Source: Gemmatimonadales bacterium
GTDB lineage: Bacteria; Gemmatimonadota; Gemmatimonadetes; Gemmatimonadales; GWC2-71-9
Assembly: GCA_037045245.1 (NCBI GenBank)
Contig: JBAOHR010000010.1
Span: 9,569 to 73,568 of the forward strand
Direction: 5' to 3'
DNA: 64,000 bases
Shown here: one piece after another, positions 37,230-56,036 of the stretch
Layout of the letters: the number at the start of each line of letters is the position of its first letter
Numbering within the stretch: position 1 is the first letter of the stretch
Translations under genes and position numbers: made by a program
The notes under the pieces: model-generated
Databases searched by the model: none
What the model was told of the DNA's origin: nothing
What the model saw: only the letters and a program-made list of their open reading frames with translations

Positions 37230-38222
37230 ATGGCACGCATCTTCTCGGGCATCCAGCCCTCCGGTGAAATGCACATTGGCAACTGGCTCGGGGCGATCCA
37301 GAACTACGTCGCCCTCCAGGATGGCAACGACTGTCTCTACTGCGTGGTCGATCAGCACGCGATCACCGGCAGCTACGAGGTGGGGACCCTCGCGGAGCGC
37401 ACGCGCGAGATGGCGATCTCGCTGCTCGCCGCCGGCGTCGATCCGTCACGCGCGGTGCTCTTCGTGCAGAGTCACGTCCCGCAGCACGCCACGCTGGCCT
37501 GGTTGCTGACCACCATCGCGCCGCTCGGCGAACTCGAGCGGATGACGCAGTACAAGGATAAGTCGCAGCGGTTCGAATCGGTGCCGACGGGGCTGCTGAC
37601 CTACCCGGTGCTCATGGCCGCCGACATCCTGCTCTATCGTGCCGAATCGGTGCCGGTGGGCGAGGACCAGGTGCAGCACCTCGAGCTCGCGCGCGAGCTG
37701 GCGCGCCGGTGGAATGCCGCCTTCGCAAAGGAGGCGCCGCTCTTTCCGGAGCCGCAGCCGATCCTCTCGCCGGCGAAGCGGATCATCGGCCTCGACGGCC
37801 AGGCGAAGATGTCGAAGTCGCTCGGCAACACGATCGGCGTGACGGAGTCGCCCGAGTCGATCTGGCAGAAGCTCCGGCCGGCGATGACCGACCCGGCGCG
37901 CAAGACGAAGACCGATCCCGGCACGCCGGAGATCTGCAACATCTACGCGCTGCATCGCCACTTCTCGCCCGAGGCGACGGTCGCCGAGGTGGCCGTGAAC
38001 TGTCGCACCGCGGCGTGGGGCTGCATCGACTGCAAGAAGGTGCTCGCCGCGAACATGTCGGAGCGGCTCGCCCCGATGCGCGAGCGCTCGCTGGCGCTGC
38101 GGGCGGCGCCGGAGACGCTGCGTCAGGTGCTGGGCGATGGCGCCGCGACCGCCCGGCGGCTCGCGGCGGAGACGATGACCGAGGTCACGGCCCGGATGGG
38201 CTTTCTCGCGGAGGGAGCATGA
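37230..38222 (+). CDS. trpS: tryptophan--tRNA ligase
   Basis: 330 aa, class I synthetase, with GEMHIGNW (HIGH-type) and KMSKSLGN motifs. Confidence 0.95.
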   Translation: MARIFSGIQPSGEMHIGNWLGAIQNYVALQDGNDCLYCVVDQHAITGSYEVGTLAERTREMAISLLAAGVDPSRAVLFVQSHVPQHATLAWLLTTIAPLGELERMTQYKDKSQRFESVPTGLLTYPVLMAADILLYRAESVPVGEDQVQHLELARELARRWNAAFAKEAPLFPEPQPILSPAKRIIGLDGQAKMSKSLGNTIGVTESPESIWQKLRPAMTDPARKTKTDPGTPEICNIYALHRHFSPEATVAEVAVNCRTAAWGCIDCKKVLAANMSERLAPMRERSLALRAAPETLRQVLGDGAATARRLAAETMTEVTARMGFLAEGA

Positions 38223-39256
38223 CCGCCACGTCCCCGATGCTGGCTCGCGTCCTCAAGGCGGCCGTGCTGCGCGACGCCTCCGACGTCCACGCGAAGGCCG
38301 GCGACGTCTTCCGGGCGCGCGTCGGCGGCGTGCTGGTGCCGTTGACCAAGCAGCGTCTCACGCCGGCCCAGACGCGGGCGCTTGCGGCCACGTTCGCCGG
38401 TCTCGACCTCGAGGACCCGCGGCTCGACGCGTTGCGCGACTTCGATTGCTCCTGGGGCGTGCCCGGCATCGGTCGCTTCCGGGTCAACGTCTCCCGGCAG
38501 CGCTCGTCGTTCATGGTGGTGCTCCGGGTCATCCAGTTCTCGGTCCCGACCCCCGAGGGGCTCCAGCTGCCGGAGTTCGTCTCGCGTTTCGCCGAGGCCG
38601 AGGATGGCCTGGTGATCGTCGCGGGACCGAGTGGCTCGGGGAAGACCTCCACGATCGCGGCGATGGTGCATCACATCAACCGCTCGCGGGAACGGCATGT
38701 CGTCACGCTGGAGGATCCGATCGAGTTCCTGCATCGCGACCTGGCGAGCTCGATCACCCAGCGCGAGATCGGGACGGACACGGCCGACGTCGCCGGCGGG
38801 ATCCACGCCGCGCTGCGCCAGGACGCCGACGTGATCGTGATCGGGGACCTGCGCGATTCACTGGCGGTCGATCGCGCCATTCGCGCGGCCGAATCGGGCT
38901 GCCTGGTGCTCGCTGCGGTGAGCGCGATCGACGCCACGTCGGCGCTGATGCAGCTGGTCGCCACGCTTCCCGCCGGCGAGCGGGACGTCGGCCGGATGCG
39001 GTTGGCGGTGGTGTTGCGGGCGGTGCTGGCCCAGCGGCTGGTCGCGGCCCCGGAGGGGGAGGGACGCATCCCGATCCTGGAGTGGATGGAACCGATCCCC
39101 GCCCTCCGTGACGCCCTGGCCGGGGGCGGCGAGGCCGCGGCGCTGCAGAAGGCGCTCGACCGGGCCACCAAGGAGGGGAAGGGGGAGACCTTCGCCCGGG
39201 CCATGGCCGAAGCCGGAGTCGCCGACGAATTGACCCCCCGGCCCCGGGCGCACTAG
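38219..39256 (+). CDS. PilT/PilU-family type IV pilus retraction-type ATPase homolog with degenerate catalytic motifs
   Basis: 345 aa from ATG 38219 (ATGA overlap with trpS). Walker A GPSGSGKTST and Asp box EDPIEF are present. Where PilT has GEMRD and TGHLV..TLHT, this protein has GDLRD and SGCLVLAAVSA. Confidence 0.8.
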   Translation: MTATSPMLARVLKAAVLRDASDVHAKAGDVFRARVGGVLVPLTKQRLTPAQTRALAATFAGLDLEDPRLDALRDFDCSWGVPGIGRFRVNVSRQRSSFMVVLRVIQFSVPTPEGLQLPEFVSRFAEAEDGLVIVAGPSGSGKTSTIAAMVHHINRSRERHVVTLEDPIEFLHRDLASSITQREIGTDTADVAGGIHAALRQDADVIVIGDLRDSLAVDRAIRAAESGCLVLAAVSAIDATSALMQLVATLPAGERDVGRMRLAVVLRAVLAQRLVAAPEGEGRIPILEWMEPIPALRDALAGGGEAAALQKALDRATKEGKGETFARAMAEAGVADELTPRPRAH

Positions 39257-39319: not shown

Positions 39320-40600
39320 ATGTTCGACCGGAAGCACAGCTGCATCGTGGTGGTCGGCGCCCAGTGGGGCGACGAAGGGAAGGGGAAGCTGGTCGACGTG
39401 CTGGCCGAGCAGGCGAACGTCGTCGTGCGCTACCAGGGCGGCGCCAATGCGGGCCACACAGTCGTGGTCGGCGATCGCCAGTTCGTCCTGCACCAGATCC
39501 CGTCCGGGATCCTCCATGCCGGCGCCAAGTGCGTCGTCGGCAACGGCGTGGTGCTCGACCCCGAGACCTTCTTCGCCGAACTCGACGAACTCGCGACCCA
39601 GGGGATCGACGTCTCCGGCCGCCTCTTCATCTCGGACCGGGCGCACGTCGTGCTGCCGTACCACAAGCTGCTGGATGCCGCGAGCGAGAAGCAGCAGCAG
39701 ATCGGCACCACGGGGCGGGGCATCGGGCCGACCTACGAGGACAAGATCGGTCGGCGCGGCGTGCGCGTCGCCGACCTGATCCGCGCCAACGTCTCGCGGG
39801 AGTTCGTGGCCGACCGGATCGAGCGGGCGAACGCCCTCCTCGCGATGATGGGGTCGACGGTGCGCGCCGACCTTGAGGAGCACCTCGCCCTCATGGAGCG
39901 CCTGGGCGCCCGTCTGCGGCCACTGGCGACCGACACGGGGTTGCTGGTCCACCAGGCCCTCCGCAGCGGTCAGCGGGTCCTCCTCGAGGGCGCGCAGGGC
40001 GCCCTCCTCGACGTGGACCACGGGACCTATCCGTTCGTCACGTCGTCGAACACGACGGCGGGCGGCGCGGCGATCGGCGCCGGGATCGGTCCGACCGAGA
40101 TCGACGGCGTCCTGGGGGTGGTGAAGGCCTACACGACCCGCGTCGGCAACGGCCCGCTGCCGACCGAGGCCGGGGGCGACCTCGAGGAGCGGCTGCGCAC
40201 CCTCGGCGGCGAGTTCGGTGCGACCACCGGCCGCCCGCGCCGCTGCGGCTGGTTCGACGCCACCGTGGTCCGCTACTCGGTCCGTGTCAACGGCCTCACC
40301 GGCCTCGCGGTCACCAAGCTCGATGTCCTCGACTCGTTCGCCGAGATTCCGGTCTGCACCGCGTATCGCCTCGATGGCGAGGTCTGCAGCGAAGTGCCGA
40401 GCGACGTCGAGCGGCTGGGTCGGGTGGAGCCGGTCTACGAGTCGCTGCCGGGGTGGCAGCGGCCGACCGACGGCGCGCGCAAGCTCGCCGACCTGCCGCC
40501 CGCGGCGCGTGCCTATCTCGACCGGTTGCAGGATCTCTCCGGGGCACCGATTCGGTATGTGAGCGTGGGGACGCGGCGGGATCAGATCATCGAGTGCTGA
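39320..40600 (+). CDS. purA: adenylosuccinate synthase
   Basis: 426 aa (GAQWGDEGKGKLVD, GTTGRGIGPTYEDK, TTGRPRRCGW). Confidence 0.97.
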   Translation: MFDRKHSCIVVVGAQWGDEGKGKLVDVLAEQANVVVRYQGGANAGHTVVVGDRQFVLHQIPSGILHAGAKCVVGNGVVLDPETFFAELDELATQGIDVSGRLFISDRAHVVLPYHKLLDAASEKQQQIGTTGRGIGPTYEDKIGRRGVRVADLIRANVSREFVADRIERANALLAMMGSTVRADLEEHLALMERLGARLRPLATDTGLLVHQALRSGQRVLLEGAQGALLDVDHGTYPFVTSSNTTAGGAAIGAGIGPTEIDGVLGVVKAYTTRVGNGPLPTEAGGDLEERLRTLGGEFGATTGRPRRCGWFDATVVRYSVRVNGLTGLAVTKLDVLDSFAEIPVCTAYRLDGEVCSEVPSDVERLGRVEPVYESLPGWQRPTDGARKLADLPPAARAYLDRLQDLSGAPIRYVSVGTRRDQIIEC

Positions 40601-40602
40601 AG

Positions 40603-40703
40603 GCGAGAAGCGAGAAGCGAGAAGCGTGAAGCGTGAAGCGTGGCCCAGCGGTGAGATCCTCCCGCCGAGCCACGCTTCTCGCTTCTCGCTTCTCGCTTCT
40701 CGA
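40603..40703. repeat. ~35-bp imperfect inverted repeat made of heptamers: (GCGAGAA)x3(GCGTGAA)x2 GCGTGGC ... GCCACGC (TTCTCGC)x3 TTCTCGA
   Basis: Read directly from the sequence. The loop is 24 nt (40645-40668). The element fills the whole gap between convergent purA and the PilX-like gene. Confidence 0.9.
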
Positions 40704-40705
40704 CG

Positions 40706-42754
40706 CTACTGCGCCCGCAAGTCCGCGAAGTACGCCGCCAGTCCCTTCTGCGCGAGCCACACCGGATCCAGTTCGTAGTAGCGCGACTCGATGAAGCGCC
40801 CCGTGGTCGGGAAGTACGGCGGCGGATTGATCGCGCCGCACGGGTCATACGCATGCGCCTCGGCGTAGCCGTACGAGGAGGAGGCGGTGTAGTCGCTGTA
40901 GGTGTAGTAGTCGACGCGGCCCATCGCGATGCCGCCGCTCACGCGCACACAGCCCGCCGGCGCGCCACCGCACCGCTCGGCGGTGGCGGTCGCATCGAAG
41001 GTGCCGGTGAGGAAGTAGGGCGCGGCCGGGCCCGGGACGCCGTTCAGGCCGGTCGTGTAGAAGTTGCCGGTCGTGCCGGTGCCGCTGCCGGCGGCGAGGA
41101 TGAACATGTTGAACTGCTCATCCGTCGGGGTGTCGTCGAAGCCGCCGAACATCCGGGCCGCGACGCGGAACGGGGTCTGCACGTTGTTGTCGGCGATGAT
41201 CGCGTCGAGCGTCGCGATGCTCCCCATGATGTCGCCTTCGGCGTCGCACTTGGTGCCCGGCGCGTTGTGATAGAGGACGTCGTCGGCGAGGATGATGTTG
41301 CCCGTGGCGAAGACCGAGACACGGCCCCGCAGCTTGCCGCTCACGGCGACGTCGCCCTGCACGAAGACCACACCCTTGAAGTTGACGTTGGCGCCGAGCG
41401 GGATCAGGTAGGCGGCATCAGAGCGCACCGCGCTGAGGCCGGCCATCGCACCGCTGCGGCGCTTCTTCCAGAATCCCATCGGATACGTCAACGAGTTGGT
41501 GATCGTGGAGTCGGGTGTGATCACGCTCGACCCGGTGGTCGAGAAGAGCTCGGGGGCGCCGCCCAGCAGGCACTTGCGGGTGCCGGCGGGGGAGGGCGAG
41601 GCCGTGATTGAAGCCGGGCGCGTCCCCTGGGTGCCGCCCGAAAGGACGTACTGGACCGCGGCCCGCTTCACGGCGGCGGTGCCCGTGACGAAGTCGTACA
41701 CGTCCCTGGCCGTGTAGAAGTCCTGGGTGCCGTTCAGGTTGACCACGGCACCACAGTTCCACGACTGCATGTTGGGGTCGTCGTTGTAGGTCGTGCCCGA
41801 CGGGACGCGCGGCCAGCGACGGCCGGTCGTGTAGGCGAGCACCGAGTCGGAGGTGTTCCGGGCCACCCAGACCCGCATGAAGCCCTCGTTCCATTCGATC
41901 GTGCCGTTGCCGTTCACGTCGACGGTCAGGAACTCGATGCGCATCCCGGGCGTGTGCGACCCCGTGGTCGGGGCGGTGAGATCGTAGTCGCCGTTCGCGG
42001 CGTCGGCATCCTGGGCATACTGCCGCATCAGGTTGATGCGGGCCGGCGTCGGCCAGGGCACCGCCGTCGCACCGACCTTGATCCCCTTGCGGTAGTCCCC
42101 GGAGCTCTGGTTCGTCACCGAACCGACGACCGTGACCGGACCGGCGAAGACGGTCTTCGGCGAGGTGCAGCCCGACTGCAACTTGAGGGCGTTGTTCGAG
42201 TGGAACGGCCCCGTGATCGACTCGCTGCAGCCGTACGCCGCCGAGCCCGCCCAGTTGTTGACGGCGACGGCGAACTTGGCCCACGATTCCTGCGTCAGGA
42301 GCAGGCGTCGGGCGGCGACGGCGCCGCGTCCGTCACGAATCACGGAGAGTGCGCTGGCGAAGTTGCTCCCGTACTGCCCGGCGGTGGCCGAACCGCCGGT
42401 GCGCCCGCCGGTCCGTCCCACGTAGAGGGAGCGGGAGATGTACGGCACCGTGCCGCCCAGGGCGTCGAGCACCGGGGCGTTGCTGGCCATCGTCGTGTAG
42501 CCGTTGAACGGCAGCAGCGAATCGAAGATGCCGCGGTTGAGCGAGTCGCGGATGATCTCGAGGCCGCCGTTCGCCGCCGCTTGCAGTGCGGCTTCCTTCG
42601 CCGTGAACTTGGTGGTCTCCTGGGCGGCACCGCTCATGAGGATCGCGCCCATGGCCATCGCCGCGATCGCGATCGACACCAGCAGCGTGAGGATGAGGGC
42701 GGCGCCGCGCCGGTCGTGGCGCAACGCGCGGGGGCGTGGCAGCGTGGTGGTCAT
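40706..42754 (-). CDS. large PilX-N-terminal-domain protein (putative pilus-tip/minor-pilin-associated protein)
   Basis: 682 aa from ATG 42754 (ATGA overlap with the upstream gene). The N-terminus RRGAALILTLLVSIAIAAMAMGAIL resembles the PilX_N pattern. The rest is Gly/Thr/Ser/Asn-rich and beta-helix-like (KGVVFVQGDVAVSGKLRGRVSVFATGNIILADDVLY). The 975-aa ORF-track start was rejected. Confidence 0.7.
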   Translation of the reverse strand: MTTTLPRPRALRHDRRGAALILTLLVSIAIAAMAMGAILMSGAAQETTKFTAKEAALQAAANGGLEIIRDSLNRGIFDSLLPFNGYTTMASNAPVLDALGGTVPYISRSLYVGRTGGRTGGSATAGQYGSNFASALSVIRDGRGAVAARRLLLTQESWAKFAVAVNNWAGSAAYGCSESITGPFHSNNALKLQSGCTSPKTVFAGPVTVVGSVTNQSSGDYRKGIKVGATAVPWPTPARINLMRQYAQDADAANGDYDLTAPTTGSHTPGMRIEFLTVDVNGNGTIEWNEGFMRVWVARNTSDSVLAYTTGRRWPRVPSGTTYNDDPNMQSWNCGAVVNLNGTQDFYTARDVYDFVTGTAAVKRAAVQYVLSGGTQGTRPASITASPSPAGTRKCLLGGAPELFSTTGSSVITPDSTITNSLTYPMGFWKKRRSGAMAGLSAVRSDAAYLIPLGANVNFKGVVFVQGDVAVSGKLRGRVSVFATGNIILADDVLYHNAPGTKCDAEGDIMGSIATLDAIIADNNVQTPFRVAARMFGGFDDTPTDEQFNMFILAAGSGTGTTGNFYTTGLNGVPGPAAPYFLTGTFDATATAERCGGAPAGCVRVSGGIAMGRVDYYTYSDYTASSSYGYAEAHAYDPCGAINPPPYFPTTGRFIESRYYELDPVWLAQKGLAAYFADLRAQ

Positions 42755-43947
42755 GGCGCGGCGCTCGTCGTGATGGCGGTGGTTCGGATCGTCGACTGCG
42801 ATGGCGTGCAGTCCTGCGCAGCGATGCCGAAGGTGTAGCCCGTGGAGAAGGAGTGGCCCGTGATGTCCGTGGAGTAACTTGTCTGGCCCGCCTCGGCGCG
42901 GACCACCAGGAGCGGTTCGGCCCAGGTGGTGGCCGAGCTGAGACGACGCCAGATGATGTATTGCGTGACGTCCTGCTCGCCGGCTTCCTGGTCGGGCGAG
43001 GCCGTCCACGAAATGCGGATCACGCCATCGCCCGGGTTCGGCTCGGCCGCCGAGAGCGAACCCGGCTCGAGCGGGACACGACCGCAGACCGTCGGGAGCG
43101 GGATGCCGTTGTTCGGCACCTCGATCGTCGTCGACATGTCGCGGAAGCGCTCGGCGGCGCCGGGGGCACCGTTCGTCAACCGGAAATTCATCCGGACCGC
43201 GCGGATGGAATCGGGCCGGACGTAGTTCGCCGAGTCCGCGGCCGTGATCCCCGCGACGAGCGGCCGGCGAATCAGCGGCAGCACGCCGGCGGGCGCGATC
43301 TGGAGCGTGTCCCCCGTCGAGAGTTGCCGCTGCATCAGGTACTCGAAGAACGGCCGCCCATTGGGGTGCGCCAGGATGTTCCGGGTCACCATCTCTGGGG
43401 TTCCGGCGTTCACCCGCTGCCACATCACGTAGTCGTCGCTCCGGGTGGTGTTGGCGTCGAGCTCGAAATAGAGCATGTACGTCTCGGCGGCCGACGGCGA
43501 GCCGTTCCCGAGCTGGTACGTCACCGGCGGGTAGGTGTAACTGGGCGACGAATTCGGGATGGCCGCCTGGGCTGCCTGCGTCCACGCCGTGGTCTCTTCG
43601 ACCGGGGTGTCGACGTTGAAGTACGTCGCCCACCGCATGTCGACCGTGTCCTGCTCGACGTAGTCCGTGTTGAACGCGAGGATGGTGTTCGCGCCGTAGA
43701 CCAGGACCGGCTGGTTGTTCGGGGTCCCGGCGCCCATCGTCCGGATGATCCGTTCCGAGGCTTCAATGGCGCCGCGGGCGCTCTCGATCAGGTCGTAGCG
43801 CGCGGTGTTGCTCTTGAAGTTCTGGCTCTGCGACCGGAAGAGCGCGTAGGTCGCGCCCGTGACGAACGTGAGCACCGTGACGGCGAGCAGCAGCTCCATC
43901 AGGGTGAAACCGGCTCGGCGGCGGGCGGCAGGCAGGTGGTTGGTCAT
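42751..43947 (-). CDS. PilW-like type IV minor pilin with a C-terminal fibronectin-III-like domain
   Basis: 398 aa with a prepilin-type N-terminus RAG/FTLMELLLAV (Glu at +5). The C-terminal segment IRISWTASPDQEAGEQDVTQYIIWRR...GQTSYSTD...YTFGIAAQD looks FN3-like. Confidence 0.75.
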   Translation of the reverse strand: MTNHLPAARRRAGFTLMELLLAVTVLTFVTGATYALFRSQSQNFKSNTARYDLIESARGAIEASERIIRTMGAGTPNNQPVLVYGANTILAFNTDYVEQDTVDMRWATYFNVDTPVEETTAWTQAAQAAIPNSSPSYTYPPVTYQLGNGSPSAAETYMLYFELDANTTRSDDYVMWQRVNAGTPEMVTRNILAHPNGRPFFEYLMQRQLSTGDTLQIAPAGVLPLIRRPLVAGITAADSANYVRPDSIRAVRMNFRLTNGAPGAAERFRDMSTTIEVPNNGIPLPTVCGRVPLEPGSLSAAEPNPGDGVIRISWTASPDQEAGEQDVTQYIIWRRLSSATTWAEPLLVVRAEAGQTSYSTDITGHSFSTGYTFGIAAQDCTPSQSTIRTTAITTSAAP

Positions 43948-43948
43948 G

Positions 43949-44344
43949 TCAGGGGCTCGCGATGACGGCGGTGACGGCGACGGTGTCCTTGAGGCCTGGG
44001 TCGATGACCCGGACGGTCACCACGGTCCGGTCCCGCGCCGGGGAGCCGGACTGGTCGCGCACGATGGTGGTGATCCGTCGCATCCGGGGGAAGCCGGAGA
44101 ACCCGGTGGTATCGGCACCGGCCCCGCTGCCGTAGAGGGTGGCCAGCCGGGTGTACCGGGGGTCGGCCCGGACCAGTTCCATCCGGTCCTGGGCGACGCC
44201 AGCCGAGATGACCCGGATCGAGGAACCGGTCATTCCCCGGGAGAATGCGGTCGAGAACTTGGCGAAGGTGGTGGTGATCAGGACCAGAATCACGACCGCC
44301 AGCAGGACCTCGACCAAGGTGAAACCGCGTCGGTCGTGGTTCAA
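43949..44344 (-). CDS. PilV-like type IV minor pilin
   Basis: 131 aa from TTG 44344, with GGAGGG 4 nt upstream. The prepilin N-terminus is RRG/FTLVEVLLAVV. The ORF-track ATG at 44425 would add an unlikely leader. Confidence 0.7.
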   Translation of the reverse strand: MNHDRRGFTLVEVLLAVVILVLITTTFAKFSTAFSRGMTGSSIRVISAGVAQDRMELVRADPRYTRLATLYGSGAGADTTGFSGFPRMRRITTIVRDQSGSPARDRTVVTVRVIDPGLKDTVAVTAVIASP

Positions 44345-44893
44345 TTGGCCCTCCGCCAGGTGCCGGTGCTCAGTGAGTACAGGGTGGGCCGTCCGGTGGC
44401 CCGGACAACCGAGATCGCTCGGCAACGCTTGCAGGATGCGTCAGGCAGCGCCGAGGTGAGGTAGATCGTACCGCCCCGGGAAGCCGACCCGTCGCGCCGG
44501 AAAATGATGGTGGAAAGCTCGGTCGGGTCGGAGGGGCCGGGTACGTCGGCGGTCGACCCCTTGGCTGAGGCGTGCCGGCTCATCCAGGACCACCGTCCGG
44601 ACCCGCTCCCCGCTGCCGACGGCCCCGTTGTTGTCGACGTCCTCATGGATCTGGATCCGCTGGGGGTCGATCACCACGAAGCGCACGTTCGCCTGCAGGG
44701 TGACGGCAAGTCGCTGCGCCTTGCTCACTTCCGTGATCACCTCGCGGGCGATCGCGTCGGTCCGGTACCGCTGCCAGTCGAGACGCGAGGCGGCGATCCC
44801 TGAGAGGATGCCGATCATGACAATCACGATCAGCAGCTCGATCAGGGTGACGCCGTGGCGTCCCGACCGGCAAGGGGCGCCGGTCGAGATCAT
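44341..44893 (-). pseudogene. FimT/GspH-like minor pilin, reading frame broken near 44545-44560 as sequenced
   Basis: The N-terminal part from ATG 44893 (RHG/VTLIELLIVIVMIGILSGIAASRL...) is in one frame. The family-typical C-terminus (TIIFRRDGSASRGGTIYLTS...RAISVVRATGRPTLY) is in another frame that ends in a TTGA overlap with the PilV-like start. The original frame continues into Arg/Pro/His-rich text with lower GC3. Confidence 0.65.
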
Positions 44894-45024
44894 TCGACGT
44901 TTCACGTTGCATCGCACGCGGTGGGCCAATTGTCCTGCCTCTGGATGGAGCCGACTGCCGGGAGCCGTTACCTTCCCGCTCGCGAACACGGGCTGCCCTC
45001 CTCCACTTCTGCTAGTTTCGGACC

Positions 45025-53328: not shown

Positions 53329-54641
53329 GGGCGTGTCTGTTTGTCTGTGTATGAGCCGAGGTTATGCATCGGCGGGGACGCGATCCCCGAAGAGCAATCG
53401 AATGTGCCGCATCGCCTCGCGCCAGTGCTGGGGCGGCTGGAAGCGGACGGTTGCGTGGCGGAGCGCGAGGTACAGGAGCTTGGCCGCGGCGTCGGCGTTC
53501 GGAAAATGGCCGCGGACCTTGAGTGACTTCCGCAGCGTGGCGTGCAGGCTCTCGATCGCGTTGGTCGAGTAGAGCAGGCGGCGGACCGGCACGGGATAGA
53601 GGAGCGCGGGGCTGATGCGCGCCCAGTGTCGGTGCCACAGCGGCGCGATTTCGGGATACGCCGTCCCGACCGGGCTCGCCGCAAACGCCGCCAGGGCCTG
53701 CTGCGCGGCCGCGTCGCTCGGGGCCAGGTAGATCGCCCGCAGCGCGGACGCCACGGCCCGACGCTCGCGCCAATTGACGGTGCGTAGACTCTGCCGCACC
53801 AGATGCACGACGCACTGCTGCACGACCGTCTCCGGAAACACCGCCTCAATCGCCGCCGGAAAGCCCGCCAGGCCATCGATCAGGGTGATCAGGATATCCC
53901 GCACCCCCCGGCCCTGCAGCTCGGTCAGGACGCGCTGCCAAAACGCGGCGCTCTCCTCCGCCGCAATCCAGAAGCCGAGCACGTCCTTGGTGCCGTCGGG
54001 GAGGAAGCCCAGCGCGAAGTAGACCACCTGCTGCCGGACGATCCCCTCGGTGCGCATCTTGACCCGCAGGCCATCCAGCGCGACCGCGACATACACCGGC
54101 TCGAGCGGCCGCTGCTGCCACGCCTGCGCCTCGTCCCACACGGCGTCGGTCACGGCGGTGATGACATCGGCCGAGACGGGGACCTGGTAGCACTCCTCCA
54201 GGTGGGCCTGGAGCTCCCGCACGGTGAGGCCCCGGGCGTAGAGCGACAGCACCTTTTGGTCGAAGCCCGGCAGGCGGCGCACCCCTTTCGGCACGAACGC
54301 CGGCGTGAAGGTCCCGGCCCGATCGCGCGGGATCGCCAGCGGCAAGGCGCCCTCATCGGTCAGCACGGTCTTCGGCGTGGTGCCATTGCGCGCATTACCG
54401 TCCGCGCCGCGCCCCTCGCCGGGCGGATAGCCCAGATGCTCGGTCAGCTCGGCCTGCAGCACCTGCTCGACCATCCGCTGCTTCAGGGCCCGGAACACCG
54501 CCTCCAACTGCTCGGGCGTCCGGACATCCGCCACCAGCGCCTCGACCGCGGCCTGCTGCGGATCCTCCCCTTTCCTCTGTCGTGCCATGGCCTACCTCCC
54601 GCTGTAGGATATGGCTCATACACAAACTTTCCGACAGGCCC
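53329..54641 (-). mobile_element. IS256-family insertion sequence, 1313 bp, with 29-bp imperfect terminal inverted repeats and an 8-bp target-site duplication
   Basis: IRL is GGGCGTGTCTGTTTGTCTGTGTATGAGCC (53329-53357). The reverse complement of 54613-54641 is GGGCCTGTCGGAAAGTTTGTGTATGAGCC (23/29 identical). The direct repeat GGTCGTAG is present at 53321-53328 and 54642-54649. Confidence 0.9.
53362..54588 (-). CDS. IS256-family (mutator-type) transposase
   Basis: 408 aa with typical IS256 transposase sequence ([10 protein letters not shown]...[31 protein letters not shown]...). Confidence 0.95.
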
Positions 54642-54657
54642 GGTCGTAGATTTCTGG

Positions 54658-54748
54658 TCACCGTTCACCGTTCACCGTTCACCGTTCACCGTTCACCGTT
54701 CACCGTTCACTGGTCACTGGTCACCGCTCACCCCTCACCCCTCACCAC
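54658..54748. repeat. 13 tandem heptamers: (TCACCGT)x7 (TCACTGG)x2 TCACCGC (TCACCCC)x2 TCACCAC
   Basis: Read directly from the sequence. It is in register with the tract left of the IS once the IS and one TSD copy are removed. It ends 8 nt before the arsB ATG. Confidence 0.9.
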
Positions 54749-54755
54749 CCCCAAC

Positions 54756-56036
54756 ATGCTCCTCGCCGTCCTCATCTTCCTCGTCACGATCACTCTCGTG
54801 ATCTGGCAGCCGCGCAAGCTCGGCATCGGCTGGAGCGCGTGTGGCGGGGCAGTGGTGGCCTTGCTGCTCGGCGTGGTCTCCGTGGCCGACATCGGGACGG
54901 TCTGGGGCATCGTCTGGAACGCGACGATCACCTTCGTGGCGATCATCCTCACCTCGCTGATCCTCGACGAGGCCGGCTTCTTCGAGTGGGCCGCGCTGCA
55001 TGTCGCGTCGTGGGGCGGGGGGAACGGGCGCCGGCTCTACGCGGCGATCATCCTGCTCGGGGCTGCCGTGTCGGGGCTCTTCGCCAACGATGGCGCGGTG
55101 CTGATCCTCACGCCGATCGTGATGGCGATCCTCGTTGCGCTCCGGATGCCGCCGGCGGCGACGCTCGCGTTCGTCATGGGGGCCGGTTTCATCTCCGACA
55201 CGGCATCGCTCCCGCTGGTGATCTCGAACCTCGTCAACATCGTGACGGCCGACTTCTTCCACGTCGGCTTTGCCCGCTATGCCGCGGTGATGCTCCCGGT
55301 GAACCTCGTCTCCGTGGCGGCGACGCTGGGCGTGCTCCTGCTCTACTTCCGCCGCGACATCCCCCACCACTATGACGCCTCCGCCCTCAGGCGCCCCGCC
55401 GAGGCGATCCGTGACCGGCCGACCTTCCTGCTGGGCTGGGTGGTGCTGGTGTTGTTGCTCGCCGGCTTCTTCCTGGGTGAGCGGCTGGGCCTGCCGATTA
55501 GCGCGGTGGCCGTGGCCGGCTCCGCGGTACTCTTTGCGATGGCGGCGCGCGGTCACGTGATCGACACGCGCAAGGTGCTGCGCGAGGCGCCGTGGCAGGT
55601 GGTGCTCTTCTCGCTGGGGATGTACCTGGTGGTGTACGGGCTGCGGAACGCGGGGCTCACGGCCGCACTCGCGGGCGTGCTGAACCGGATCCCTGCCGAG
55701 GGCACGCTGGCACCCGCGCTCGGCACCGGGCTGCTGACGGCGTTCCTCTCGTCGATCATGAACAACATGCCGACGGTGCTGATCGGGGCGCTCTCGATTG
55801 ATGCGTCGACCGCGACGGGGGCCGCGCGCGAGGCGATGGTCTACGCCAACGTGATCGGCAGCGACCTCGGCCCGAAGCTCACGCCGATCGGGTCGCTGGC
55901 GACGCTGCTCTGGCTCCATGTGCTCGCGCGCAAGGGAATCACCATCACCTGGGGCTACTACTTCCGGGTGGGCGTCGTGCTGACGATCCCCGTGCTCGTG
56001 ATCACGCTCGCCGCGCTGGCCTGGCGCCTGAGCTGA
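54756..56036 (+). CDS. arsB: arsenite efflux pump membrane protein ArsB
   Basis: 426 aa from ATG 54756. It is closely similar along the N-terminal region to my recollection of E. coli ArsB (LVIWQP..LGIGWSA...IVWNAT...[12 protein letters not shown]...LFANDGA.LILTPIV). The ORF-track start at 54582 reads through the repeat and the IS end and was rejected. Confidence 0.9.

Follow-up and report, generated by a model that had tools for sequence, protein, structure and literature searches.

A probable type IVa pilus tip operon with a large ComZ-like cap pilin in Gemmatimonadales

We analyzed a 64,000-nucleotide (nt) stretch of contig JBAOHR010000010.1 from a Gemmatimonadales bacterium (assembly GCA_037045245.1; hereafter, the window), which carries four consecutive minus-strand genes, here called A, B, C, and D, between purA and glyS. 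It probably encodes the core minor pilins that prime a type IVa pilus and form its tip, in an operon of the type represented by ComZ and by the cyanobacterial PilX. The genes follow the order H, I, J, K, and A, B, and C open with prepilin motifs. The cassette is conserved across the phylum, and in one lineage it is linked to major-pilin (pilA) and pilMNO genes. The original prediction, made from the sequence alone, had placed four such genes here, and they are where it put them.

The window has a G+C content of 69%, and its housekeeping content comprises rpoBC, ribosomal-protein operons, secY, map, trpS, purA, and glyS; these assignments were judged from the sizes and order of the open reading frames (ORFs). 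When the other larger ORFs were scanned with Pfam, no pilin, PilY1, secretin, PilB/C, or PilMNOP turned up outside the cassette, and pilD is likewise absent from the window. The description of the cassette as standing alone, with no pilus genes nearby, holds within the window; however, the phylum has type IV pilus genes elsewhere, and at one locus (L081, below) the cassette lies inside a pilus supercluster.

The four genes and their products

The junctions between the genes are tight. C and D share an ATGA overlap (42751-42754), and B and C are separated by a 1-nt gap at 43948. Both had been described correctly; the TTGA overlap between A and B (44341-44344) is real as well, but is present only in the repaired frame of A. 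In a six-frame scan of the 64 kb, the prepilin motif G[FV]TL.E ahead of a hydrophobic stretch occurs three times, in A, B, and C only, so that the three N-termini of the form G/(F,V)TL(I,V,M)E named earlier are exactly the ones recovered. Each of them carries a class III signal, with Gly-1 and Glu+5, and each matches N_methyl above its gathering score. The same scan found the GspK/PilX-type motif RRGAALILTLL at the N-terminus of D; this putative cap subunit has Gly-1 and lacks Glu+5.

Gene D (40706..42754, minus strand) encodes a protein of 682 amino acids (aa) at the PilX/GspK position. Its AlphaFold2 (AF2) model, Foldseek matches, and family features together point to a cap pilin of ComZ-like architecture. 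The model has a predicted local distance difference test score (pLDDT) of 83.5 and a predicted template modeling score (pTM) of 0.79. According to DSSP, residues 1-157 (42284..42754, minus strand) form a pilin-like part, made up of a class-III-like leader, a long N-terminal helix (15-73), and a four-stranded sheet (86-157). About 490 beta-rich residues with some helices follow. In the model and the family alignment, this solenoid-like insertion spans residues ~160-645 (40820..42277, minus strand), with variable loops at ~300-440 and ~560-600 and with the six Cys residues that are invariant in the family. The remainder (residues 646-682; 40709..40819, minus strand) holds the most conserved motif, PPPYFPTTGRF..RYYE.DP, with the last strand (650-662), and then the C-terminal helices.

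A structure search with the model of D had been proposed as a check, and it returned a pilus protein: the sole PDB matches at E<=0.001 were three chains of 6QVI (ComZ of Thermus thermophilus). The best of these had an E-value of 6.9e-6 and a probability of 0.92, and the next-best PDB entry had an E-value of 0.7. On the predicted structure, the similarity of D to ComZ is supported, at a level below proof of shared topology. Pfam and NCBIfam contain no family for the D of the window.

A profile search of 1.84 billion cluster representatives (E<1e-3) gathered 728 representatives of the D family, mostly of 580-780 aa. The close homologues number more than 200, and all the named ones are "hypothetical protein" from Gemmatimonadales. 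We aligned 51 diverse members, reaching down to 25% identity. Gly-1 (G17) and six Cys residues are invariant among them; L, M, T, F, or V occupies position +5 in 50 members, and none has Glu there. The most conserved parts are the solenoid core at 440-500 and the C-terminal PPPYFPTTGRF strand, and the segments at ~300-440 and ~560-600 are variable and rich in indels. PilX_N (PF14341) was matched by 10 of the 51, in one case above the gathering score, and DUF4900 by 18, at the end of the pilin-like sheet. A literature search on DUF4900 found nothing relevant. The match to the ComZ fold, the PilX_N matches in distant members, and the family-wide absence of Glu5 all favor the original view of D as a PilX-like tip protein in place of PilY1. 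Its description as rich in Gly, Thr, and Asn was only roughly right: Ala makes up 13% of the protein, Gly 11%, Thr 9.5%, and Asn 4.7%. The protein is near neutral in charge.

Other identities for D were tried and rejected. An origin as a phage tailspike or tail fiber was discarded on the lack of any BFVD structure match at E<1e-3. Neither D nor any other large ORF of the window matched a PilY1-family model in Pfam or NCBIfam, which disposed of a PilY1/PilC adhesin, and a beta-propeller fold was absent among the Foldseek matches of D. A GspK of a type II secretion system (T2SS) was rejected because Pfam gave no T2SSK match and no GspK was among the Foldseek matches.

Gene C (42751..43947, minus strand; 398 aa) occupies the PilW/GspJ position and was characterized by its N_methyl match, an AF2 model, and its homologues, of which there are 320, all of about 380-400 aa. 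It has sub-threshold matches to GspJ and to Verru_Chthon cassette protein C. The reading of its N-terminal part as PilW was retained on position and on these sub-threshold matches. Residues ~290-398 (42754..43080, minus strand) are predicted to form a fibronectin type III (FN3) domain of seven strands, with a pLDDT of ~90. Foldseek found 265 PDB matches to this domain at E<1e-3; every structure among the 50 matches listed contains FN3 (EpoR, fibronectin, gp130, and titin, for example). This confident model bears out the FN3-like C-terminal domain that had been proposed.

Gene B (43949..44344, minus strand) starts with TTG and encodes a small minor pilin of 131 aa at the PilV/GspI position (N_methyl, 27.5 bits). 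Its top specific family is PilV (TIGR02523), with 22.4 bits against a cut-off of 52.2. Nearly every locus that has the interval between A and C contains an ORF there, of 118-129 aa when measured from the prepilin motif. The sub-cut-off PilV score, the position, and the size weakly support the assignment of B as PilV-like.

Gene A (44341..44893, minus strand) is frameshifted in the window; it matches N_methyl as it stands, and GspH when repaired. The 553 nt from 44893 to 44341 do not divide evenly by 3, so that A is not one intact ORF: the N-terminal frame terminates at TGA 44443-44441, and the GspH-like C-terminal half is in another frame. The original prediction treated A as a single ORF overlapping B, and the break had gone unnoticed. 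Its naming of A as FimT/GspH-like was sound, as the repaired protein (183 aa from ATG 44893) passes the Pfam threshold for GspH (PF12019; 23.7 bits against a gathering score of 21). GspH is also its top NCBIfam model, below the cut-off. An alternative GTG start is found at 44989, with a GGAGGAGGG Shine-Dalgarno sequence.

Relatives of the cassette and neighboring genes

We surveyed one genome per species, confirmed 535 loci (numbered with the prefix L), and read the genomic context in the best 80 of these. These 80 are labeled Gemmatimonadota, except for one "Acidobacteriota" metagenome-assembled genome (MAG) and two unclassified "bacterium" MAGs; two MAGs with the cassette are labeled Gemmatimonas sp. 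(L030 and L049). The order A, B, C, D (as H, I, J, K) is found again in all Gemmatimonadota loci whose contig covers the interval. Most of the 80 have glyS on the opposite strand, then A, B, C, and D, followed by purA, a PilT-like gene, and trpS on the opposite strand. This housekeeping context is kept down to about 35% identity in D; at about 32-34%, the A-B-C-D order is kept, whereas the housekeeping context is gone.

Locus L081, from bacterium HR33, has a D that is 33% identical to that of the window. There, the end of a sigma-54 PilR-like regulator gene is followed by three large ORFs, two canonical type IVa major-pilin genes, A-B-C-D, two further pilin genes, and pilM-pilN-pilO (Pfam PilM_2, PilN, and PilO). 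This linkage ties the cassette to a type IVa pilus. In locus L084, this supercluster recurs with a secretin gene, but the cassette is missing from it. Homologues of the L081 PilM are abundant, are 70-77% identical to it, and carry the source label Gemmatimonadales, and Gemmatimonadota genomes have been reported to carry type IV pilus genes (PMC10581226). Given the L081 arrangement and the pilus genes of the phylum, the locally stand-alone cassette is most plausibly part of a type IVa pilus system. No single genome was shown to contain the glyS-purA cassette together with a pilMNOPQ cluster, the listed PilM matches being on other contigs.

The three large ORFs, of about 500-690 aa, are conserved between the PilR-like regulator and the major-pilin genes in L081 (932-6302) and L084 (846-6186), and have no Pfam match apart from a sub-threshold tetratricopeptide repeat (TPR). 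In L084, the same interval also contains a family 2 glycosyltransferase (GT2). These large ORFs may be involved in pilin modification.

Several loci have more than one copy of the cassette or of its parts. Tandem duplicated cassettes at the same glyS-purA site, on either side of the matched copy, are found in L001/L020, L015, L016, L022, L034, L047, and L067. The two D paralogues of L001 share 64% identity, with the differences mostly at residues ~300-420, and the first cassette copy there is without its own GspH-like gene A. L025 has two adjacent D genes. In L047, L050, L055, L059, L070, L071, and L074, an additional prepilin gene pair lies about 2 kb upstream of A; it encodes a second GspH-like protein (179 aa) and a PilW-like protein of ~300 aa that ends in PRNLIYERNRL and has no FN3 domain.

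The PilT-like ATPase gene (38219..39256, plus strand; 345 aa; TIGR01420 and synteny) lies between trpS (37230-38222) and purA (39320-40600) in the window, as it does in most of the Gemmatimonadota loci examined. Its start overlaps the trpS stop codon by ATGA, just after a GGAGGGAG Shine-Dalgarno sequence, and the gene looks to be co-transcribed with the housekeeping genes. The location given for it earlier, 1.4 kb off on the other strand, is accurate (its end is 1450 nt from D, and it is on the plus strand), but its identity as PilT is less secure: the protein scores 279.8 bits against TIGR01420, under the PilT/PilU cut-off of 319.1. Canonical PilT and PilU have GE in Walker B and histidines in the His-box; the window protein has GDLRD at Walker B and no His in the His-box region, which is degenerate across the syntenic family too. 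Judged by these motifs, the protein may not be a conventional retraction ATPase, and we treat the gene as a syntenic neighbor of the cassette with a putative functional tie. In the long-contig MAGs L001/L020, L034, L037, L055, L068, and L074, purA, the pilT-like gene, and trpS appear to be split into several frame-shifted pieces. Such splitting points to indel errors in the assemblies concerned, which bears on how the frameshift in gene A should be judged.

The convergent purA and D are separated by 105 nt (40601..40705), and this entire spacer is taken up by a hairpin of (GAGAAGC)n heptamers and their complement, with a folding free energy (dG) of -83.6 kcal/mol and a z-score of -9.6. The heptamer array has no second occurrence in the window. 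The hairpin is probably a bidirectional terminator, and its repeat structure is unusual. At the other end of the cassette, the divergent intergenic region between gene A and glyS (44894..45024), defined by position only, presumably contains the promoter; a sigma-70 consensus scan found none in this region, but scans of this kind are not informative in this phylum.

Large ORFs at 51-63 kb and 0-5 kb of the window were considered as pilus assembly genes and rejected on their Pfam identities. They encode PriA, an IS256-type transposase, ArsB, a TonB-dependent receptor, an ArgZ-like protein, an ABC transporter, a DsbD-like protein, a TPR protein, MscS, and CysRS. The transposase gene (IS256/Mutator family, Pfam E 7e-105; 53362-54588, minus strand) adjoins and slightly overlaps the gene for the ArsB arsenite pump (54582-56036, plus strand), and is the sole mobile element seen in an otherwise housekeeping window.

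Proposed function and rival readings

The mechanism that we propose combines our inferences with a model that has been published for GspHIJK and FimU-PilVWX. After presumed processing by a prepilin peptidase, B (PilV/GspI), C (PilW/GspJ), and D (PilX/GspK) would assemble first, as a priming complex on an inner-membrane platform encoded elsewhere. D would cap the filament and end up at the pilus tip, because it has no Glu5 and no subunit could therefore sit above it; for ComZ, a tip role has been argued on steric grounds (PMC6561018). A, the FimT/GspH-like protein, would join the tip complex to the major-pilin fiber. The complex would prime polymerization and then remain at the tip. The ~490-residue beta-rich insertion in the pilin fold of D could serve as a bulky tip plug and binding surface, which is the job of PilY1 in Proteobacteria, and together with the FN3 domain of C it would form the exposed tip structure. 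The ligand of D might be a surface polymer or DNA.

Several observations weigh against this interpretation. The window contains no major pilin or assembly gene, and any partner machinery of this genome would lie outside it. The TM-scores between D and ComZ are 0.14-0.22, the match being a local Foldseek 3Di alignment and the insertion point being read from the order of secondary structure elements; low scores are expected, because D is a multi-domain protein and the N-terminal helix is absent from the crystal. The D-family profiles (A1 and A3) gave no ComZ match at E<=10 among all PDB sequences and detected no other solved structure, and the D of the window itself matches neither PilX_N nor DUF4900. 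B and C were assigned to PilV and PilW on position and sub-threshold scores. Against PDB sequences, their profiles matched only the N-terminal helix of solved pilins, the exception being B, which matched the Thermus narrow-pilus pilin PilA5 weakly and at near full length (E about 0.02). The AF2 model of C has a long N-terminal helix and a globular pilin part of low confidence. Lastly, gene A carries a frameshift in the window sequence.

The significant structural matches of D are all to ComZ, which binds DNA and is needed for transformation but dispensable for piliation (PMC6561018). The operon could thus encode the tip of a competence pilus, with D as a DNA receptor like that of Thermus, and serve natural transformation rather than adhesion or motility. 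Of the two solenoid-PilX sets of cyanobacteria, one is reserved for competence, whereas the same fold also serves a motility/exopolysaccharide (EPS) pilus (bioRxiv 10.64898/2026.02.12.705559). The tandem cassettes of some Gemmatimonadales, with D copies 64% identical, are compatible with specialized tips. However, D has no sequence similarity to ComZ, the DNA-binding lysines of ComZ cannot be mapped on D, and D is near neutral in charge; furthermore, neither the window nor the flanks examined showed comEA, comEC, or dprA. We consider a competence-specific role unlikely. A broader form of this idea, in which the D family is the phylum-wide counterpart of ComZ and acts as a tip DNA receptor across Gemmatimonadota, with the tandem cassettes as alternative tips, seems to us quite improbable. 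If it were true, it would mark Gemmatimonadota as naturally transformable, supply a mechanism for their gene acquisitions, and offer a route to genetic tools for a group that is difficult to study.

The H-I-J-K order is identical to that of the pseudopilins of a T2SS, GspH is the top family match of A, some sources name homologues of C PulJ or PulG, and the Thermus minor pilins and ComZ themselves resemble T2SS pseudopilins (PMC6561018). Nevertheless, it is very improbable that the four genes are T2SS pseudopilins and not part of a type IV pilus. Besides the lack of a T2SSK match in D, none of gspC, D, E, F, L, and M is present in the window or in the scanned flanks (gene table of L001; Pfam scans of the window and L081). 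The neighbors of the cassette at L081 are type IVa major pilins and pilMNO, the latter also components of such pili, and a PilT-like ATPase is syntenic. A further reading concerns this organism alone: were the insertion in gene A real, A would be a truncated pseudogene, the adaptor between the tip complex and the fiber would be missing, and the operon would be crippled here. The frame is broken by a single extra base, a G on the minus strand (44565..44565), found by alignment with L002 and L003, which are two independent public assemblies (runs SRR30303836 and SRR30303839). The window reads CCTCAGCCAAG where both have CCTCA-CCAAG; it is otherwise identical to them over 670 nt, and 99.94% identical over 4.6 kb. 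In both, gene A is intact and called as 215 aa. The additional base relative to two such similar assemblies, at a site (CA[G]CC) that is no homopolymer run, is consistent with a real insertion. On the other hand, B, C, and D are intact, the product of C matches a public protein at 100% identity, the high DNA identity extends over the entire cassette including D, and long-read MAGs of this order have many such indels in housekeeping genes (for example, L001/L020). The insertion may be an assembly error, and we hold a crippled operon to be possible but doubtful.

If the cassette is a type IVa tip operon, as we consider probable, a role is now proposed for the D family, whose 728 representatives are annotated by their sources only as "hypothetical protein." The design in which a solenoid-bearing PilX/ComZ replaces PilY1 would then extend from Deinococcota and Cyanobacteria to a third phylum, and the cassette would provide a concrete gene set for asking whether Gemmatimonas twitch, adhere, or take up DNA.

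Comparison with known systems

The Verru_Chthon cassette (TIGR02596, TIGR02598, TIGR02599, and TIGR02600) likewise comprises four prepilin-like genes, including one very large one. Membership was rejected: A scored 25.4 against a cut-off of 70 (cassette protein D) and C 18.9 against 256.5 (cassette protein C), both far under the cut-offs, and D had no match to cassette protein A. With GspH-GspI-GspJ-GspK, the Gemmatimonadales genes share the order, a GspH domain (in A), and a cap that lacks Glu5 and is the largest of the four. However, D has no T2SSK domain, the context at L081 is that of a type IVa pilus, and the insertion of GspK is alpha-helical and at another position in the fold (PMC6561018).

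The fimU-pilV-pilW-pilX-pilY1-pilE set of Pseudomonas aeruginosa shares the order and logic of the four core minor pilins, the last of which lacks Glu5, and is also an operon apart from pilA and the assembly genes. The Gemmatimonadales cassette differs in having neither PilY1 nor PilE, and in the FN3 domain on the PilW-position protein. Its PilX-position protein, at 682 aa and with its own large domain, is far larger than the small proteobacterial PilX. The cassette had been called atypical, which is true only against this textbook set, as the same architecture has been published for Thermus (PMC6561018) and for cyanobacteria (bioRxiv 10.64898/2026.02.12.705559).

All cyanobacterial PilX proteins have a bulky solenoid between the penultimate and last strands, which has been proposed to replace the PilY1 "plug," and the sets are split between competence (PilX-Com) and motility/EPS (PilX-EPS) (bioRxiv 10.64898/2026.02.12.705559). 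The cyanobacterial sets appear to resemble the Gemmatimonadales cassette in architecture, albeit in another phylum, in being of the FimT/PilV/PilW/PilX type with a solenoid-bearing PilX. There can be several sets per genome, which recalls the tandem cassettes of L001, L015, L047, and L067.

The nearest analogues of the cassette are these cyanobacterial sets and the comZ locus of Thermus. In ComZ, a tip pilin that resembles GspK, a solenoid is inserted ahead of the last strand, and the gene follows pilA1-3 (PMC6561018). The Thermus locus, pilA1-pilA2-pilA3-comZ(-pilA4), is like the Gemmatimonadales cassette in that three small or medium-sized prepilin-type pilins precede a far larger pilin-like protein without the canonical motif, and in that the locus contains no PilY1 gene. 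ComZ has a pilin-like N-terminal part and a large beta-rich insertion ahead of the last strand, and the model of D suggests the same arrangement; however, the two share no detectable sequence similarity, and the solved ComZ chains have 498-518 residues compared to the 682 aa of D. In Gemmatimonadales, the major pilin is not adjacent, and the PilW-position protein carries an FN3 domain, of which we found no mention for the Thermus system or in the cyanobacterial material seen. This domain is a minor variant feature. The cassette reveals no new mechanism, and is an undescribed but fairly ordinary case of a minor-pilin set with a large cap pilin, as known from Thermus and the cyanobacteria.

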